Below are positions 137 to 27,547 of a DNA stretch of 32,000 nucleotides, in pieces. Origin of the DNA: Candidatus Jordarchaeales archaeon (GTDB lineage: Archaea > Asgardarchaeota > Jordiarchaeia > Jordiarchaeales > Freyrarchaeaceae); NCBI GenBank assembly GCA_038858525.1, contig JAWCFL010000001.1:90001-122000 (forward strand), read 5' to 3'. Made by a program: the position numbers and the translations under genes. The notes under the pieces are model-generated. The model had not been told where the DNA came from, did not search any database, and saw nothing but the letters and a program-made list of their open reading frames with translations. Numbering within the stretch: the first letter of the stretch is position 1; the number at the start of each line of letters is the position of its first letter.

Positions 137-2740
137 TTATTGAGTGGTAGATATTTTTTGTCTTTGTCCTGGTGGACTTTTTTTCGTGTTATTTCTTTTT
201 TGGGTAGAACCGTGCAGGAGAAAGAGCATTATGACTAGGATGGCTGTTATGGTTATTGTAAGCGGGATTCGCCATGTGACTTGTTGTGAGACTACTAATG
301 GGAGGTTTAGGGGCACTCTGTGTTCCGTTATTGTTATAGATTTGGCATCTGAAACATATATTTTCCCATTTTCCGTTGTTGCTACTGCGTAAATTACTAT
401 TTTGTTTTCGAGTTTTGTTGTGTCAAGTTGGAAGCAAACTTTATTTTCCTGTGAGGTTTTCGTGATTGTTTTTTGTCCACTTATAACTATAACTGTTAGG
501 TTAACAATTCTGTAGGGATGAGTGGCTGTAATGCTTATTGATACTGTTTCGCCTTTCTTTGCTTCCGAGGGAATTTGTATATTGAACTGTGCCGGGGCTA
601 TGTCTCCAGCTAACCATTCACACAAAGATTTGAATAATTGAATGTTGTCTTTTTCTGTTACCGAGGTGTTTTTCCATAGATCTAGGTCGGCGACAAACGC
701 TACTTTTCCATTATGCCATTCGATGCATGAGGCAATGATGTATTCTTGAGTGATGGATGGAGCAACAAGTAATGGTCTTCCTCCCTCGACTTTTCCAGGG
801 TCTTCTAGCAGGATTTCGTTTGCCCTGAATGTTTGAGGCGCTTTCGTGCATCTGGCAATTACAGTACCTGATAGACTCGATGTTGAGAAAGCGACATTAA
901 AGTATGATGCGAGCTTGTTCGCGTTACTTGCTAGAGCTGGGTCATTCTCTCCGATTATAAGTAGGCTTCCACCTGATTGGACAAAGCTAAGTACGGCTTC
1001 AATCTCGTCTTTAGTATAGTTTTGTGAAGGGTAATAAACGACGAGTATGTCGAAGTTTCTAAGGGTTTCGAGTGTTATTTCGCTGGTAAGTTTCTCGAAG
1101 TAGAATAGACTTGCGTTGAGTGTGTTTCTGAGGATAGAGGTGTTGTTCCAGAGTTCCAAATAACGGTCTTGTTGATGATACTCATCGATAAGGATTTTTA
1201 TGGGAGCTCCCACCTCAATAATGGTTTGAAAGGGAGAGAAGCCTTCTTTGGTCACCGTTACGTTATATATGCCTCTTTCAGGGCAGGGAAAACGTATTTC
1301 GCCGTTTTTGTCTGTGATGTATGTGTGGTAGTAGTTTAATCCTTTTATGCACACATAAGCACCGTTAATGGGAGCGTTTCCATCTGAAACCCTGAGTGTT
1401 GTTATGCGCCCAGGAACCAAACGATTATCGACTTCTAAGTTTAAGCTCTTTATCGGCCCGAAGCATACTGGAAGCTCAGGGTCACCTAGAAGGATGTACT
1501 CAAGGAACAGTTGGGTATACGTCACGTTGTTTTCAAGTAGATTTTTGTATGACTTATAGTATTCCTCCTTAGCTTTGTATAGGGCGTACCCTGGACGTTG
1601 GTTGAATGGCTGGTCTGCACTGAAGAAAACTTTGAAGAAGGTGTAATCGAAGAAGGTGTCTGCGGCGTCGTTTATCGTGTCACCGCCGAAGGTTGTTCTG
1701 GTTGACGCTATAACCGCTATGGCGCCACCTCCAGAATTTTTAAGTAAAGATTCTGCAATGGAGTCGGTGCCACCATCAATGTAACCTGCAAGGCACGCTG
1801 ATATGAAAAACAAAGGTAGACGGTAACCATTAGAGAGGTTTTTCGCGGTATTTGAAGTTAAAAATGGTGGGGAGTTTTGCGCAATATAAAGACCAGTTTG
1901 GCTTCCGTGAGAGCATATATTAACTATCGCTACCCCTTCGCTGACTTTCTCCATAAAAGATTGCTCTGTGAGGTTGTCAAAATTCCGTATACTGTCATAT
2001 GTGAGGAGAGTATATCCGGATGGGAGTTGGGGGAATGCTTTTAGGGTGACTTGTTTAGCTCGCCACCCTTGAATATCTTGAAAGGAGTTTATTTCGCCTC
2101 CTATAAGGAGGACTTTACTCGTCCATTCACCAGAATGCGTATATAGGTATCGCTCGTATGTTAGAGTTTTGTTTATGAAGGCTTCTAGTTCATCCGTAGA
2201 GGAGACGGGTATTCTTCCCACGTAGATTTCAGGAGACCAGTCTATTTCTCCGGGCTCACCGTAGCGGCCATCATTATCGTCGTCAAATGAGCCATCGAGA
2301 GCAGCATAGTAGTAATCTGAAGGAATAAGATTGTTGCCTATAGTAAAATATCTTATCGGAATTTTATCGACGTCTCCCACTAGGAGAACCCACTGCACTC
2401 CTTTTGAAACGTATAGGCTCTTTAGGAAGTTGCGAATTTTTGATGCGTTGTCTTCGCCCATGAAGTTCTGGTAAATAAAGCCTATCGTGTAGATTTCTGC
2501 GGGAAATCCCTTGAGAGATTTCCACTCGGCGAGAGGACGGACGAGATCAACCCATTCATCGCCCACAATTATCACATACTTTACGCTGTTATCCATAAAA
2601 AAGGTGGGAGTGCATGGAGGAGATGGAGAAGGAAAAGTATACAGAGAGTATAATTGTGGAGGCTGGTTTAGAACGGGTGATGCTAGAGTGGCGAGTATTA
2701 GGAAAAGCGGTAGTACAGCTTTCCTGAACGTTCTCATCAT
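137..2740 (-). CDS. Membrane-anchored secreted C25 (gingipain-like) cysteine peptidase with a GldG/IFT52 (GIFT)-like domain
   Basis: N-terminal signal-like helix; C25 motifs VLLVGDVDKIP, SDYYYAALDG, EIYVGRIPV; His/Cys catalytic dyad in SHGS and SACLAG; later ILIDEYH...FDILVV...NYTKDEIEAVLSFVQSGGSLLIIGE resembles GIFT/DUF4350; C-terminal TM helix. Start trimmed to the ATG after GAAGGAG. Confidence 0.85.
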   Translation of the reverse strand: MMRTFRKAVLPLFLILATLASPVLNQPPQLYSLYTFPSPSPPCTPTFFMDNSVKYVIIVGDEWVDLVRPLAEWKSLKGFPAEIYTIGFIYQNFMGEDNASKIRNFLKSLYVSKGVQWVLLVGDVDKIPIRYFTIGNNLIPSDYYYAALDGSFDDDNDGRYGEPGEIDWSPEIYVGRIPVSSTDELEAFINKTLTYERYLYTHSGEWTSKVLLIGGEINSFQDIQGWRAKQVTLKAFPQLPSGYTLLTYDSIRNFDNLTEQSFMEKVSEGVAIVNICSHGSQTGLYIAQNSPPFLTSNTAKNLSNGYRLPLFFISACLAGYIDGGTDSIAESLLKNSGGGAIAVIASTRTTFGGDTINDAADTFFDYTFFKVFFSADQPFNQRPGYALYKAKEEYYKSYKNLLENNVTYTQLFLEYILLGDPELPVCFGPIKSLNLEVDNRLVPGRITTLRVSDGNAPINGAYVCIKGLNYYHTYITDKNGEIRFPCPERGIYNVTVTKEGFSPFQTIIEVGAPIKILIDEYHQQDRYLELWNNTSILRNTLNASLFYFEKLTSEITLETLRNFDILVVYYPSQNYTKDEIEAVLSFVQSGGSLLIIGENDPALASNANKLASYFNVAFSTSSLSGTVIARCTKAPQTFRANEILLEDPGKVEGGRPLLVAPSITQEYIIASCIEWHNGKVAFVADLDLWKNTSVTEKDNIQLFKSLCEWLAGDIAPAQFNIQIPSEAKKGETVSISITATHPYRIVNLTVIVISGQKTITKTSQENKVCFQLDTTKLENKIVIYAVATTENGKIYVSDAKSITITEHRVPLNLPLVVSQQVTWRIPLTITITAILVIMLFLLHGSTQKRNNTKKSPPGQRQKISTTQ

Positions 2741-22418: not shown

Positions 22419-24586
22419 TTAGAACTCTGCCAATTTGACTCACTTTAATCTTCAAGTCTTTAATTCTTTCTTTTCCCCGCTAGAGACTTGATCCTTTATT
22501 TTTCTTGCCGTTTCAGGACCCTATTTTTGTAGGCTAGCTAGTTTTTCGAGGAAGATAGGTTTAAGTCATCAATGGAACGTACACTTGCATTAAACAGCAT
22601 CCTAGCTCTAACTTTGCCTACGCATTCAACTTCACGATGTCCAGTAACTCTTCTTTGATGCCATACCTTATCCCGTTCATGCATTTTTCCGAGAAAACGA
22701 ATTTTATCGGTCATGTCTAGTATATTTGCTATTTCACTTGCTGCATACGTCAACTATTCTGGCTATTTCGACTAAAGGATAAGTATCTCCCACACCGACA
22801 ACGAGAAAGTCCACTACTTCGTCCTTATCGACCTCACCTATCCACTCTTAGTAGAAAGGCGGTCTTGACCTCTAAAAAGGAGCCGTTCGTACTTCGCCGG
22901 ATCAGATTCATAGTTCGGTACTTCTGTCATGAAAAAGTCTTTGTTATTTTCTACAATCGTGGAAAACTGGTAATCCTTTTGTAAGGTAAAGCCGCAGCAT
23001 ATCCGGCGTGGTGCATAACAAGTATAGATAGTTTATTTCTAAGGGAGGCGGGAATCTTAAGCCGTTGATTATCTTAATCACGGATAATGGGTCTACGTAA
23101 ACTTCTGCAACACGCTTTCCTAGTGGGGATGCCGCTAAATTTCTGTCTGAGATTTTTTAGAAACCCGTTGTTCGAAAGAAACGTTAATACGTTCTTTATC
23201 GTTTTGGGAGTATCTTTATGTATCCGCCTTGCGGATAAGCGTAGAAACTTCCACTAAAGAGCTAAGAAGTTCTTCCTCGGCCATTTACATAGCCGGATAC
23301 CACTAGAGATAAAACGTGACATCTGAGAGCGTTCTCGGATGAAAGCTTGGACTCTACTCTTTCGTGGCTCCCCTTTCACGTAACGTTTCAAAAGAAGTGA
23401 TTTTCCTTAGTGTTTTTAGCTACTAAGATTGCTTCACCAACCACATCATATTTTAGTCTTCCAGCCCTACCAGCCATTTGCTTATAAACAGGTATAGGCG
23501 TTCATTCCACCTTCGGCTTCTTTTGTAATTTCTGATTATTACGTGTCTTGCTGGAAGGTTAACACCCGCAGCTAAAGTTGGCGTTGCACAAACTACTTTA
23601 ATCAGGTTTTCCTTTGAAGCCATGTTCTACTATTCTTCTTTGGGGAGTACTTAATCCAGCATGATGAAAAAGCTACGCCTTTTTCGATTGCCGATGTGAA
23701 CTTCTGAAATTTTGTTTTTCTCACCGCTAGCAACCAACTCCGCAATGATCTCTCTGAGGGAACGCTTCTCTTGCCTTGTAAGAAGGTGAGCGATGAAATA
23801 TTAGAGGAGGCGCTATCTACAGTCATTGATCCTCCCTAGTCGCCTCAAAAATGAGCGCTTGACAAGCGTTCTTAACGGTATTAGCAGCTAAATATACTGC
23901 GGCATCACTTGTACTCTCCTCAACAATAGAGGAGGTCCCATCGCTAAACTCGGTTGCTCATCAAAGAAAAAGCATTCCTTTAGTTGAACAGGACGCCAAT
24001 CACTAAATATATGAGCGCCGCCAATCCACCCGCTGATCTCGTCAGCGTTCTTTATTTTTGCGCTTAAAGCTAGGATTTGAGGAGAAGGAGCAAATTTTTC
24101 AGCCTAGTGAGAACTATTTCGAGCGTTGCACCACGGGAAGGGTCACTTAGAAGGTGCATTTCATCTGCAACCACAACATTGACCTTAGAAAAATGGATGA
24201 GTTTGCCTCATTAAAGCGTCAGCCATTTCGTTAATGCAAACTAATACGTCAAATTCCTCCAGCTCATACTTCACAGAGTCGTAGTCTCCCGTTGAAACTC
24301 CGACATTACCTAAGCTATTCCACTTCGAAAACTCCTGAAACTTCTCGTTCGCGATGGCACGTAGTAGAACCAAATAAAGAGCGCACCCACCTTCCAAGAC
24401 TTTCTTAATCATACAAAGCTCTGCTATGAGAGTCTTACCCAGCAGCAGTCAGCGCAAGCCAAAACAGCGTTCCGCCCATTAGGCACACAGCTTCTCACAG
24501 CAGCTTCTTGAGGCGAGTATAACTTCTTAATGCCATGTGTCTCTAAAGTCTTCAGGACGTTCGGGCAACAGCTCGTCAATAAGCAT
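22419..24586 (-). pseudogene. hel308: Degraded Hel308 (Ski2-like SF2) DNA helicase
   Basis: Motifs appear in order but split over several frames and stops: [103 protein letters not shown]. The 3' end is approximate. Confidence 0.9.
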
Positions 24587-24654
24587 CGAACCTCTCTCCG
24601 TTTAAACAAGTTATGTTCTCAGACAAGCGCGTTATCTCTCCTTGTGAATTTATC

Positions 24655-24661
24655 AAAGTCA
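24655..24661. repeat. Left target-site duplication AAAGTCA
   Basis: Identical 7-mer at 26024-26030; both abut the inverted-repeat ends directly. Confidence 0.8.
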
Positions 24662-24703
24662 CAGGCTGTCGAAAGATTCGACATCCTTAAATATGAGTCT
24701 TTC
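24662..24703 (+). repeat. Terminal inverted repeat, left copy
   Basis: Contains palindrome TGTCGAA-AGA-TTCGACA (24667-24683); inverted match to 25981-26023. Confidence 0.9.
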
Positions 24704-24724
24704 AGCTGTCGAATCTTCAGCCTC

Positions 24725-24850
24725 TCCGTTCCTGTCCATCCGCTTGTCCTCATCGCAAGGCTTGTTAGGGCGGACTTCATCCACATCATGGAGCTTTCAA
24801 GGGAGCCTGAAACTCCTCACATCCTGGAGGAATTTTCTAAGCAGATTTCT
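24725..24850 (-). ncRNA. Putative TnpB omegaRNA scaffold overlapping the tnpB 3' end (boundaries approximate)
   Basis: GATGTGAGGAGTTTCAGGCTCCCTTGAAAGCTCC resembles, from memory, the GA-rich structured tails of archaeal tnpB genes; omegaRNAs overlap tnpB 3' ends as a family rule. Not folded computationally. Confidence 0.45.
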
Positions 24851-25926
24851 ACACGCATCCATATGCCTATCTATTCCGCATTTCGGGAGCTCTGCTCTTT
24901 CGGCTTTATGATTGAGCCACATACCGAGCAGATTTTAGACGTTTCCTCCTATCAACATAAGAGGTTGTGGAGCCGTTGAGCAGATCTTTATACTCAACAT
25001 AGAACTGTAGCCTTCTTGTCGGCATGGCATTCCACAACCTTTTGAAACGCTTAGAGTTGATGGAGCATCTCTGAACCTTTCCCTTAAACTTGTTGTATCG
25101 CTTCCCTTTCTTATTCGTTGATTTTCTCATCCCCTTAAGGTCTTCAAAGACTATCGTGTAGCCTCTACATTTGTTAATTATAGCTTTAGATAGCTTGTGG
25201 AGGGCGTCTTTAATCTTGCCGCTCTCTCTTTTTTCCCATACTTTTTCATAAGCCATTTGTAGGTTTTTGTCCCTTTAGCAACTTTCATTTGGATTCGCTT
25301 TCTCTTTTCAAAGTATGCTGAACGTATCCTTTTCTTTTAATCTCGGAAGTATCAATGACGGAGGAGCCTCCATCGGTTGCCAGCGCCGTTATGTTTTCCT
25401 CGTTTATGTCCAATGCAATAGCTCCTTTAGGCTCTAAGAGGTTGACAACCCATTTAAAGGGTATGAGGACGTACTGCTCGTTTATTATGATTTCCCCAAT
25501 TTTTAGCTCTCCACGCTTCCATGCATCAACGAACTTCCTCTGGTAGCTTCCAAAAAGGAGCTTTAAATGGACAAGTTTTCTCGGCTTAACCGAAATCCTT
25601 ATGGTTTCACCATCAAACTTGTAGGCTAAGGGGGAAACCTTCACGAACAGACTCTTAACCTCTGGAACCTCTCCGCCTCTCTTCTTCCAAGCCTTAACGG
25701 CTCCAATTGCTACTCTGTAAGCCGTAACGTAAAAGCTGATTTGGTATGAATATTTACGTTTAAGCTCCACATATATGGCATCGTGAAGCGACTTTAGCGA
25801 CGTAGTCCTTAGTTTTACAAGTTTCTTTATGCAGGCATTAACAATTTCTTGATAATCAGAAAGCAACTTGTCTATCTCGGCGTTCTTCTATTTGAAGGGA
25901 ACTGACTGCACAACCTCTAAAGACAT
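24797..25926 (-). pseudogene. tnpB: TnpB RNA-guided nuclease, inactivated
   Basis: ATG 25926; TAG at codon 13; RuvC-I AIALDINEEN, RuvC-II IVFEDL, Zn finger TSKICSVCG...PKCG, RuvC-III DRHMDACRN; frameshifts near 25320, 25230, 24945 and 24890. Confidence 0.9.
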
Positions 25927-25980
25927 CAAAAATTTATCTTAGATAAAGTTTTATGAATCTTTCAGAAACATCGGCAAAAA

Positions 25981-26023
25981 GAACGACTTATATTTAAATG
26001 ATGTCGAATCTTTCGACAGCTTG
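25981..26023 (-). repeat. Terminal inverted repeat, right copy
   Basis: 26000-26020 is the exact reverse complement of 24665-24685. Confidence 0.9.
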
Positions 26024-26030
26024 AAAGTCA
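26024..26030. repeat. Right target-site duplication AAAGTCA
   Basis: Identical to 24655-24661. Confidence 0.8.
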
Positions 26031-26137: not shown

Positions 26138-27547
26138 ATGAACAAAAAGGTTATTCTGCTGGATTCAACGCTTCGTGAAGGAGAGCAGACGCCGGGCGTA
26201 TCATTCACCATAGAGGAGAAACTTGAGATTGCGAAAATGCTGGACGAAGTTGGCGTCGGCATGATCGAAGCAGGGTCCCCCATGGTTTCGGAAGGAGTCA
26301 AAGAGGCTGTTAAAAGAATAGCAAATGAGTCGCTGAAAGCAGAGGTTATTGCTCACGTCAGAGCGGTTAAAGAAGACGTAGACTTAGCTCTTAATTGCGG
26401 AGTTGACCGAGTAGCCATCTTTATGGGGACGTCACCTATACATAGAAAAACGAAATTTAAGTTAAATGAAGAGGAAATTATTAAGAGAGTAATTGAAGCA
26501 GTTGAGTATGCTAAAGAGCATGGAGTTAAAGTGAGGTTTACCCCTGAGGATGCAACTAGGACTGAAAGGGAATACCTAGTTAGGATTTGCTCAGCAGCTA
26601 TAGAGGCGGGAGCAGACAGAATAAGCGTGGCGGATACAGTAGGAATAATGACCCCAGATAGTATGTATGAGCTTGTATCTTTTCTTTCCGAAAAGCTAAA
26701 GGGTGCAGGACTTGACGTGCACTGCCATAACGATCTAGGATTAGCTGTTGCCAACTCTCTCGCAGGAGTGAAGGCCGGAGCAAATGTGGTTCATGTTACG
26801 GTAAATGGGCTTGGAGAGAGAGCAGGCATAGCACCTCTTTCGGATGTAGCTGTTGCGTTAAAAGTATTAATGGGAATAGATCCCGGAATAAAGTTTCACA
26901 TGTTAACTGAGCTCTCAAGCATGGTTGAAAGATATAGTGGCGTATACCTTTCTCCTCACACCCCAATAGTTGGAAGTAACGCGTTTTCCCATAAAGCAGG
27001 AGTTCACGTAGCTGCCGTTCTAGCTGACCCGAGCACGTATGAAGCGTTTGACCCGTCAATCTTGGGAAGAAGCAGAAAAATAGTCGTAGATAGATATGCT
27101 GGAAAGCATGCTGTTAAAGCAAAGCTGGACGAGCTAGGAGTAGAAGTAAATGAGGAGCAACTGGAGAAAATAACTAGGAAGATAAAGGAGCTTTCAGATA
27201 AGAAAAAGCGCATAGAGAACGCTGACATTTTAGCTATAGCAGAAGAGGTGTTAGGACGAAACGTCAGAGGCGTAACGCCTGAAGGAGTTATGGGGATCGT
27301 CTTAGTGAAGGTCGAGTCGCATGTTTACACGACGAACATAATAAGAAGGATCATAAATATCCCCGGAGTGGAAAACGCATTTGAAGTGAGTGGGGAGTAC
27401 GACATAGTGGTTTACGTTCAAACAAGGAATATGAGCGAGTTGAACGAACGCATAGAGGCAATCAGAAGCGTAAGGGGAGTTGAAAGAACCACAACAAAGA
27501 TAGTGCTAAAGAGGTTCGACAGTCAAAATAAAATAATTTCGAAGTAA
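26138..27547 (+). CDS. Homocitrate synthase-like LeuA-family enzyme with a C-terminal Lrp/AsnC (RAM) regulatory domain
   Basis: DSTLREGEQTPG, HCHNDLGLAVAN, NGLGERAG, FSHKAGVH; C-terminal IPGVENAFEVSGEYDIVV...IRSVRGVERTTTKIVL is a RAM domain. Confidence 0.9.
   Translation: MNKKVILLDSTLREGEQTPGVSFTIEEKLEIAKMLDEVGVGMIEAGSPMVSEGVKEAVKRIANESLKAEVIAHVRAVKEDVDLALNCGVDRVAIFMGTSPIHRKTKFKLNEEEIIKRVIEAVEYAKEHGVKVRFTPEDATRTEREYLVRICSAAIEAGADRISVADTVGIMTPDSMYELVSFLSEKLKGAGLDVHCHNDLGLAVANSLAGVKAGANVVHVTVNGLGERAGIAPLSDVAVALKVLMGIDPGIKFHMLTELSSMVERYSGVYLSPHTPIVGSNAFSHKAGVHVAAVLADPSTYEAFDPSILGRSRKIVVDRYAGKHAVKAKLDELGVEVNEEQLEKITRKIKELSDKKKRIENADILAIAEEVLGRNVRGVTPEGVMGIVLVKVESHVYTTNIIRRIINIPGVENAFEVSGEYDIVVYVQTRNMSELNERIEAIRSVRGVERTTTKIVLKRFDSQNKIISK

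Follow-up and report, generated by a model that had tools for sequence, protein, structure and literature searches.

The 32,000-nucleotide stretch analysed here (hereafter the window; contig JAWCFL010000001.1 of a Candidatus Jordarchaeales archaeon) holds a 1362-bp mobile element (24662-26023) whose sole coding content, a decayed tnpB gene on the minus strand, lies between terminal inverted repeats that are directly abutted on both sides by AAAGTCA. The account that we favour, and consider rather probable, is that of a non-autonomous cut-and-paste-type transposon with TnpB and a guide-RNA scaffold as cargo, moved in trans by a transposase that is probably of the DDE class. Inverted ends combined with a mostly 7-bp duplication of variable sequence are typical of this class, which makes a DDE enzyme the likeliest mover; as no transposase was found, it is from this footprint that an enzyme acting in trans is deduced. 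The features of the element, in window positions, are as follows.

24655-24661, no strand: left copy of the 7-bp target-site duplication AAAGTCA; the empty site of a congener has a single (T)AAGTCA
24662-24703, no strand: inverted-repeat arm at the tnpB 3' end, which is the right end of the element in gene orientation; core 24662-24685, tip CAGG, the tip being conserved in all relatives
24662-24830, minus strand: non-coding 3' region, from the zinc-ribbon/RuvC-III part to the element end; probable omega-RNA scaffold, from an alignment of eight relatives with compensatory changes
24830-25926, minus strand: tnpB pseudogene, broken by at least four frameshifts and an early stop; RuvC D/E/D and CxxC motifs
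25981-26023, no strand: inverted-repeat arm at the tnpB 5' end, which is the left end in gene orientation; tip CAAG
25990-25999, minus strand: ATTTAAATAT box inside the left arm, ~64 nt upstream of the ATG; likely promoter
26024-26030, no strand: right copy of the target-site duplication AAAGTCA, abutting the arm

The arm at 24662-24685 is identical to the reverse complement of 26000-26023 at 23 of 24 positions, and the inverted repeat lengthens to 30 nt at 90% with a repeat finder and to ~43 nt at 88% with BLAST. A 21-nt exact inverted repeat with a 7/7 flanking repeat exactly at its tips is far beyond chance (by our own calculation, a 7/7 flank match at fixed positions has a chance of ~1 in 16,000). 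Coordinates and alignment confirmed in these respects an earlier reading of the DNA made from its letters (the sequence-only reading), which had described the segment, its ends, its flanks and its decayed gene in the same terms. Set against intact relatives, tnpB runs through the reading frames -3, -2, -1, -3 and -2, and therefore has at least four frameshifts, as well as a stop codon in frame at position 13. Across the shifted frames, one can still recognise the RuvC D/E/D motifs and the cysteines of the zinc ribbon; the window copy is dead, and the element is single-copy in its own genome.

Genomes and loci are referred to by handles where they have to be told apart: G000 is the window's own genome, G001, G002 and G003 belong to the same genus, G410 and G418 are Bathyarchaeia genomes, L-numbers are loci, mostly from metagenomes, and P0001 and P0002 are protein relatives of the decayed TnpB. 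When the element and one AAAGTCA are taken out, the remaining sequence aligns without a break with the hel308-homocitrate synthase spacer of G003, which contains a single TAAGTCA and no inverted repeat, and a second congener, G001, is also without the element. The uninterrupted G003 site with one (T)AAGTCA therefore shows that the element was inserted here and duplicated a 7-bp target, as the sequence-only reading had anticipated.

By motifs and Pfam domains the protein is a TnpB. Members of the family are ~400-415 aa long and combine the MJ0013 N-terminal family with OrfB_IS605 and Cas12f1-like_TNB; the intact P0002 matches PF07282 with 52.6 bits and PF01385 with 31 bits, both above the cut-off, and the RuvC-I D, RuvC-II E, RuvC-III D and Cys columns are conserved in the alignment of relatives. 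A HMMER search with the 193-aa N-terminal fragment against 1.84 billion representative proteins returned only 125 hits, the nearest being P0001 (~86-87% identity) and the intact 415-aa P0002 (65% over residues 1-199), and the contigs of both proteins have the same ends as the window element.

Relatives that are 33-87% identical in protein sequence, drawn from the window's own genome, a congener, Bathyarchaeia and metagenomes, have in common ends starting (C/T/A)AGGNTGTCGRAA, and the duplications in the family (four perfect of 7 bp, one of 8 bp and one of 6 bp) are all different in sequence. A second element of the window's own genome (C24:12886-14150), with a TnpB ~41% identical to that of the window, has the 14-nt ends CAGGCTGTCGAAAA and CAGGTTGTCGAAAA and TTGTTC (6 bp) on both sides; the congener copy (G002:C3:178186-179305) is flanked by TAAACAA (7/7), and the metagenome loci L182 and L187 by TATTTAA (7/7) and AAATACTT (8/8), respectively. 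L179/L183 is the window element at another locus, with 82% DNA identity and a duplication decayed to 5/7. In G418 there is a multi-copy family of which five left and five right ends lie at contig ends, all starting (A/C/T)AGGCTGTCGAAAAATTCT; TCTTATT flanks both a left end on C19 and a right end on C53, and is therefore taken as a 7-bp duplication split by assembly. The family of tnpB-bracketing copies with differing duplications, named in the sequence-only reading as something that would support it, was in this way recovered. Inverted repeats conserved across copies, a variable duplication of near-constant length and a single-copy empty site, which characterize DDE-type elements, are thus all found here.

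Within G418 this end is found ahead of a second TnpB lineage (L351) as well, and the multi-copy TnpB of this genome is only ~33% identical to P0002. The same end on two TnpB lineages that are ~33% identical is what would be expected if a separate enzyme reads the ends. At the insertion sites, no consistent motif was found in the 4 nt upstream of the duplications, which are AT-rich (11 sites). The targets of the L182 and L183/L179 insertions are AT-rich and nearly palindromic (ACTATTTAATAGT; TCTTTTTATTG..CAATAAAAAGA), and this hints at a symmetric target preference.

A DNA search of 61 related genomes with the window element yielded no copies, and an exact end-pattern search of genome contigs gave 102 hits, almost all of them bacterial single sites reading as chance or coding sequence; only two Bathyarchaeia hits are related, one of them a 34-nt solo remnant. 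For the Bathyarchaeia locus L119, the homology to the C24 element of G000 begins exactly at the repeat tip. L119 (metagenome-assembled genome (MAG) contig JAWAZE010000004.1) and G000 C24:12886-13680 have 79% DNA identity over ~800 nt, which suggests either transfer between phyla or a binning error, and in L119 an unrelated 327-aa open reading frame (ORF) replaces the 5' part of tnpB.

A maximum-likelihood tree of 60 members groups the inverted-end elements into two well-supported clades, clade A with the window copy, L183 and L180, and clade B with L182, L185, L186 and L187. Both clades, together with L188, which bears a different 40-nt inverted repeat, are excluded from a clade of 43 members with 96% support, 13 of which are of an asymmetric right-end type and 30 of which were left unclassified. 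The asymmetric type includes an abundant family of the window's own genome, represented by roughly twelve partial copies, most of them at contig ends, in which the left end starts GGGTTTGCA and the right end consists of a hairpin followed by CCGACAACGG, and those copies that can be paired are without a duplication. The right ends of the inverted-end and asymmetric types follow a common plan, "hairpin plus ..CGACA.C..". Judged from tree and ends together, the inverted ends are an inherited feature of a sub-lineage of archaeal 'MJ0013-type' TnpB elements. The abundant asymmetric-end repeat of G000 (C6:42806-44662) is a 1.86-kb tnpB-only element of the same TnpB superfamily, with ~630 bp of non-coding 5' sequence.

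This inheritance bears on the alternative that had been set beside the DDE proposal in the sequence-only reading, namely that a tnpB of the ordinary IS1341 type jumped into a small miniature inverted-repeat transposable element (MITE), to which the ends and the duplication would then belong. With inverted ends that are heritable in a TnpB sub-lineage, capture by a MITE is unlikely, and we give it very little probability. Over relatives of 33-87% identity the ends have diverged along with TnpB, the right arm belongs to the 3' stem-loop that is conserved in the tnpB unit, and there is no second, inner pair of IS605-type ends. The single-copy state of the window element in its genome and the ordinary asymmetric ends of the sister clade within this TnpB family speak in favour of a capture. 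A tnpB-free copy of the ends was not seen in any locus fetched nor in G000, G001-G004, G053, G400, G401, G410, G418 and G446.

In the 3' region, eight relatives align well between the RuvC-III motif and the right tip. The right arm supplies the 3' strand of a stem, with the 5' strand provided by sequence just interior to it (24704-24719 pairs with 24669-24680). The terminal stem shows compensatory changes between lineages (GTCGAA/TTCGAC, GTCGGA/TCCGAC and GTCGGAAGA/TCTTCCGAC), and further upstream RNAalifold found compensatory changes in 13 of 17 predicted pairs; no Rfam family matches the 3' region. From this covariation the region is probably an omega-RNA scaffold that ends at the right tip, with a terminal stem-loop that uses the arm. 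The left end of clade B is without the partner half of the stem, so only the outer ~14 nt are common to both ends, and the repeat of the window lineage has lengthened to ~40 nt and takes in the TATA-like box. A TTTAAAT box is found again in the left ends of relatives, and the ATTTAAATAT box in the window is likely to be a promoter. At a Bathyarchaeia locus (L306, G410:C24), an ORF for a LAGLIDADG homing endonuclease (850-1419, minus strand; Pfam 29.5 bits, above the cut-off) lies between tnpB and the right inverted end, where it occupies the guide-RNA region of the other copies.

The same structures could be read in another way, in that a Y1 transposase of the IS200/IS605 type or a serine transposase of the IS607 type moves the element and the apparent inverted repeat consists of palindromic end hairpins. 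The end core does contain a palindrome (GTCGAA..TTCGAC), the subterminal hairpin of the right end resembles IS200/IS605 ends, and relatives in the same family have asymmetric ends with a GGG start and a CGG finish. The repeat, however, runs past the palindrome on both sides in inverted orientation, and the left end of clade B has no hairpin altogether. Y1 and serine enzymes do not make variable 6-8-bp duplications (PMC13565253, PMC4810608), and the duplications and the empty site contradict such movement. The Y1 transposase family PF01797 was not found in the window genome, which is 92.7% complete, nor in cis in the 78 loci of a metagenome scan seeded with a 4-sequence TnpB alignment; no neighbouring recombinase gene was seen in these 78 loci, Pfam Resolvase not having been searched genome-wide. 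Taken together, this makes movement by a Y1 or serine enzyme highly improbable.

The favoured account, a DDE enzyme acting in trans, has to be weighed against several results of our search for that enzyme and of the comparison of ends, all of which count against it. No gene recurs beside tnpB and no transposase lies in cis in the 78 metagenome loci; DDE_Tnp_1, rve and the Mutator type (Transposase_mut) were not detected in G000, G002, G410 and G418, and the carrier genomes are without IS1595 DDE genes. The ISC1217-type family DDE_Tnp_2, chosen because this family makes 6-8-bp duplications, was rejected as a partner, since its hits in the phylum sample were rare and weak and lacked the end motif. 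In all loci and genomes searched, the end motif occurs only at the ends of tnpB elements, and no other DNA bears these ends. Two loci, L181 and L188, look intact yet have no clear duplication, and in L186 an 8-bp repeat is offset by 3 nt. The first base of the left end varies between A, C and T even among recent G418 copies, whereas the right tip is always C, which is not explained by a simple symmetric DDE model.

Other parts of this search concern single families and genomes. Genes of the IS1595 DDE type are present in 17 of 400 genomes of the host phylum, with unrelated ends (e.g., GGCTCTTCCCC, CGCTCTTATAAC), and IS1595 was rejected as the partner on account of these ends and its absence from the carriers. 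Neither rve nor the Mutator type was detected in G446, and G401 has one decayed DDE_Tnp_1; the only match in viral contigs was to a conserved coding sequence of phage. No autonomous relative combining these ends with a DDE gene was found in the loci, the carriers, the 400 phylum genomes (IS1595 and DDE_Tnp_2) or the viral contigs. Four DDE Pfam families were scanned in the carriers, and a fifth, DDE_Tnp_2, in the phylum sample only. The carriers are incomplete MAGs, including a congener 95% complete in 8 contigs, and the absence of a partner gene from them is for this reason weak evidence either way. The proposal of DDE mobilisation in trans made in the sequence-only reading therefore stands as far as the footprint goes, which fits, but it has gained no transposase with these ends, and searches of the carriers for several DDE families were negative.

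The lack of a partner would be accounted for if the element were autonomous, with TnpB (RuvC, a nuclease of RNase-H fold), alone or with host repair, both excising and inserting it, and with staggered cuts giving the 6-8-bp duplications. In favour of this are the absence of a transposase in cis from the 78 loci and of the tested families in trans from the carriers, which included the 95%-complete congener and the multi-copy G418, as well as the restriction of the ends to tnpB elements and a duplication length that varies from 6 to 8 bp. The occurrence of the same ends on two TnpB lineages ~33% identical fits an external enzyme better, and the scans of the carriers covered four DDE Pfam families in incomplete MAGs, with DDE_Tnp_2 covered in the phylum sample, so that we hold autonomy to be improbable. 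TnpB is not known to act as a transposase. That this archaeal TnpB clade might be self-sufficient, its RNA-guided nuclease doubling as the transposase with the help of omega-RNA or host repair, is in our view a distinctly improbable claim.

An integrase outside the DDE class, a Cas1-type casposase or one of another family, could instead move the element in trans. Casposon duplications are ~14-15 bp long, against the 7 bp seen here, and no Cas1 gene lies near the ~100 loci examined, Cas1 not having been searched for in the carrier genomes. The tested DDE families were not found, the host looks Asgard, and Asgard Cas1-TnpB units flanked by repeats have been reported (PMC10691335), all of which speak for an integrase, although on balance we think such an enzyme a doubtful candidate with a small chance of being the mover.

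If a DDE transposase does act in trans, our data would be consistent with the following course of events. A transposase encoded elsewhere would bind the 14-nt core of the ends and excise the element, which would then be joined to a target whose two strands are cut 7 bp apart. The TATA-like box in the left end would drive the transcription that yields TnpB, and the 3' region would give the omega-RNA, the last hairpin of which overlaps the right arm. The guide would in this case consist of the duplicated 7 bp plus the flank beyond.

The host of the window element can be placed from its own genes. G000 (2.1 Mb) encodes six full-length Ras-family GTPases (141-193 bits) and a homologue of the ESCRT-II protein EAP30 (66 bits, above the cut-off), located on contigs C4, C12, C10, C6 and C3:106337-106999, and on these grounds the host is taken to be Asgard. 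In agreement with this, no genome was common to a Bathyarchaeia sample (the 50 listed of its 251 genomes) and the 400-genome sample of the host phylum. Comparing NAPRTase with that of named Bathyarchaeia genomes did not help to place the host, and profilin was not detected, nor was the positive control of that search. Related elements are present in Bathyarchaeia genomes with up to 79% DNA identity, and near copies in both Bathyarchaeia and a probable Asgard genome mean that the family crosses phyla. The sequence-only reading had attached special interest to an Asgard host; the host does look Asgard, but near copies are also present in Bathyarchaeia.

On either side of the element are genes of other kinds. 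The adjoining hel308-type helicase gene (window 22419-24654, minus strand) is decayed, and the element sits in its upstream region; the intact 688-aa G003 orthologue, which has DEAD, Helicase_C and archaeal helicase domain 4, is matched in pieces only, over three frames and with 31-50% identity. Beyond the right flank (window 26138-27547), a homocitrate-synthase-like gene combines HMGL-like and HCS_D2 domains with a C-terminal Lrp/AsnC ligand-binding domain (AsnC_trans_reg).

Most solo tnpB genes are taken for remnants of IS200/IS605 or IS607 elements or for passengers on them. Here, a whole archaeal sub-lineage, spread over a probable Asgard genome and Bathyarchaeia, has switched to inverted ends with 7-bp duplications, while a sister lineage of that genome has retained asymmetric ends without duplications, which provides a clean natural comparison. 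This comparison bears on how TnpB and its guide RNA adapt to a change of mobilising enzyme, and on the benefit of a guide that starts with the duplicated target. Should the partner be found, it would represent one more pairing of a DDE enzyme with TnpB, and if none exists the view of how TnpB elements move would have to change.

Among known systems, IS200/IS605 elements are defined as having neither terminal inverted repeats nor a duplication and as inserting 3' of a fixed 4-5-nt target (PMC4810608, PMC13565253). The window family differs from them in that its duplications vary in sequence and in that no Y1 TnpA was found, and it differs from IS607, which has no inverted repeats, no duplication, GG ends and a serine TnpA, in having both inverted ends and a duplication. 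The IS1341 group resembles the window family in its size of ~1.3 kb, its single tnpB, a 3' region resembling an omega-RNA and a right end with a subterminal hairpin, whereas the 24-43-nt inverted ends and the 7-bp duplication of the window family are excluded by the IS1341 definition.

The sequence-only reading had compared the element to Fanzor, the nuclease carried by eukaryotic DNA transposons (Bao and Jurka, 2013; PMC3627910). The layout is indeed analogous, as in both cases a nuclease of the TnpB family is cargo between inverted repeats that generate target duplications, but the host here is an archaeon, the protein is a prokaryote-type TnpB of ~400 aa and no transposase is present in cis. 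Against solved structures, the family profile scored best on Cas12f/TnpB chains (69-63 bits), with ISDra2 TnpB at 41 bits; the mimivirus Fanzor2 L79 scored 58 bits, in the same range as the TnpBs, and no other listed chain is named Fanzor. On these profile scores the resemblance to Fanzor is architectural only, the protein being an ordinary TnpB/Cas12f-like one without special Fanzor affinity, and the element adds little to the Fanzor question.

The insertion sequences ISL2, IS630 and IS1031 make duplications of 2-3 bp or TA, against the 7 bp of the window family. These three are the DDE partner families of TnpB given in a 2026 review (PMC13565253), and six DDE-associated TnpB branches (DDE-1 to DDE-6), all with inverted terminal repeats, were described by Altae-Tran et al. 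(2023; PNAS, PMC10691335), along with solo TnpBs that have the same ends and are presumed to be moved in trans. The layout had been thought unusual for prokaryotes in the sequence-only reading; the inverted ends are real, but TnpB between inverted repeats is already known in prokaryotes, where it is rare, and had been reported in both of these papers (PMC10691335, PMC13565253). What is specific here is an archaeal family with a 7-bp duplication, with a sister clade of asymmetric ends in the same genome and with no transposase-bearing version found. The 7-bp duplication and the lack of a DDE-bearing version among the copies found set the window family apart from the DDE-TnpB branches, with which it agrees in having TnpB between inverted repeats, in a tnpB 3' end that lies less than 250 bp from the end of the element and in solo copies that are presumed to be mobilised in trans (PMC10691335).

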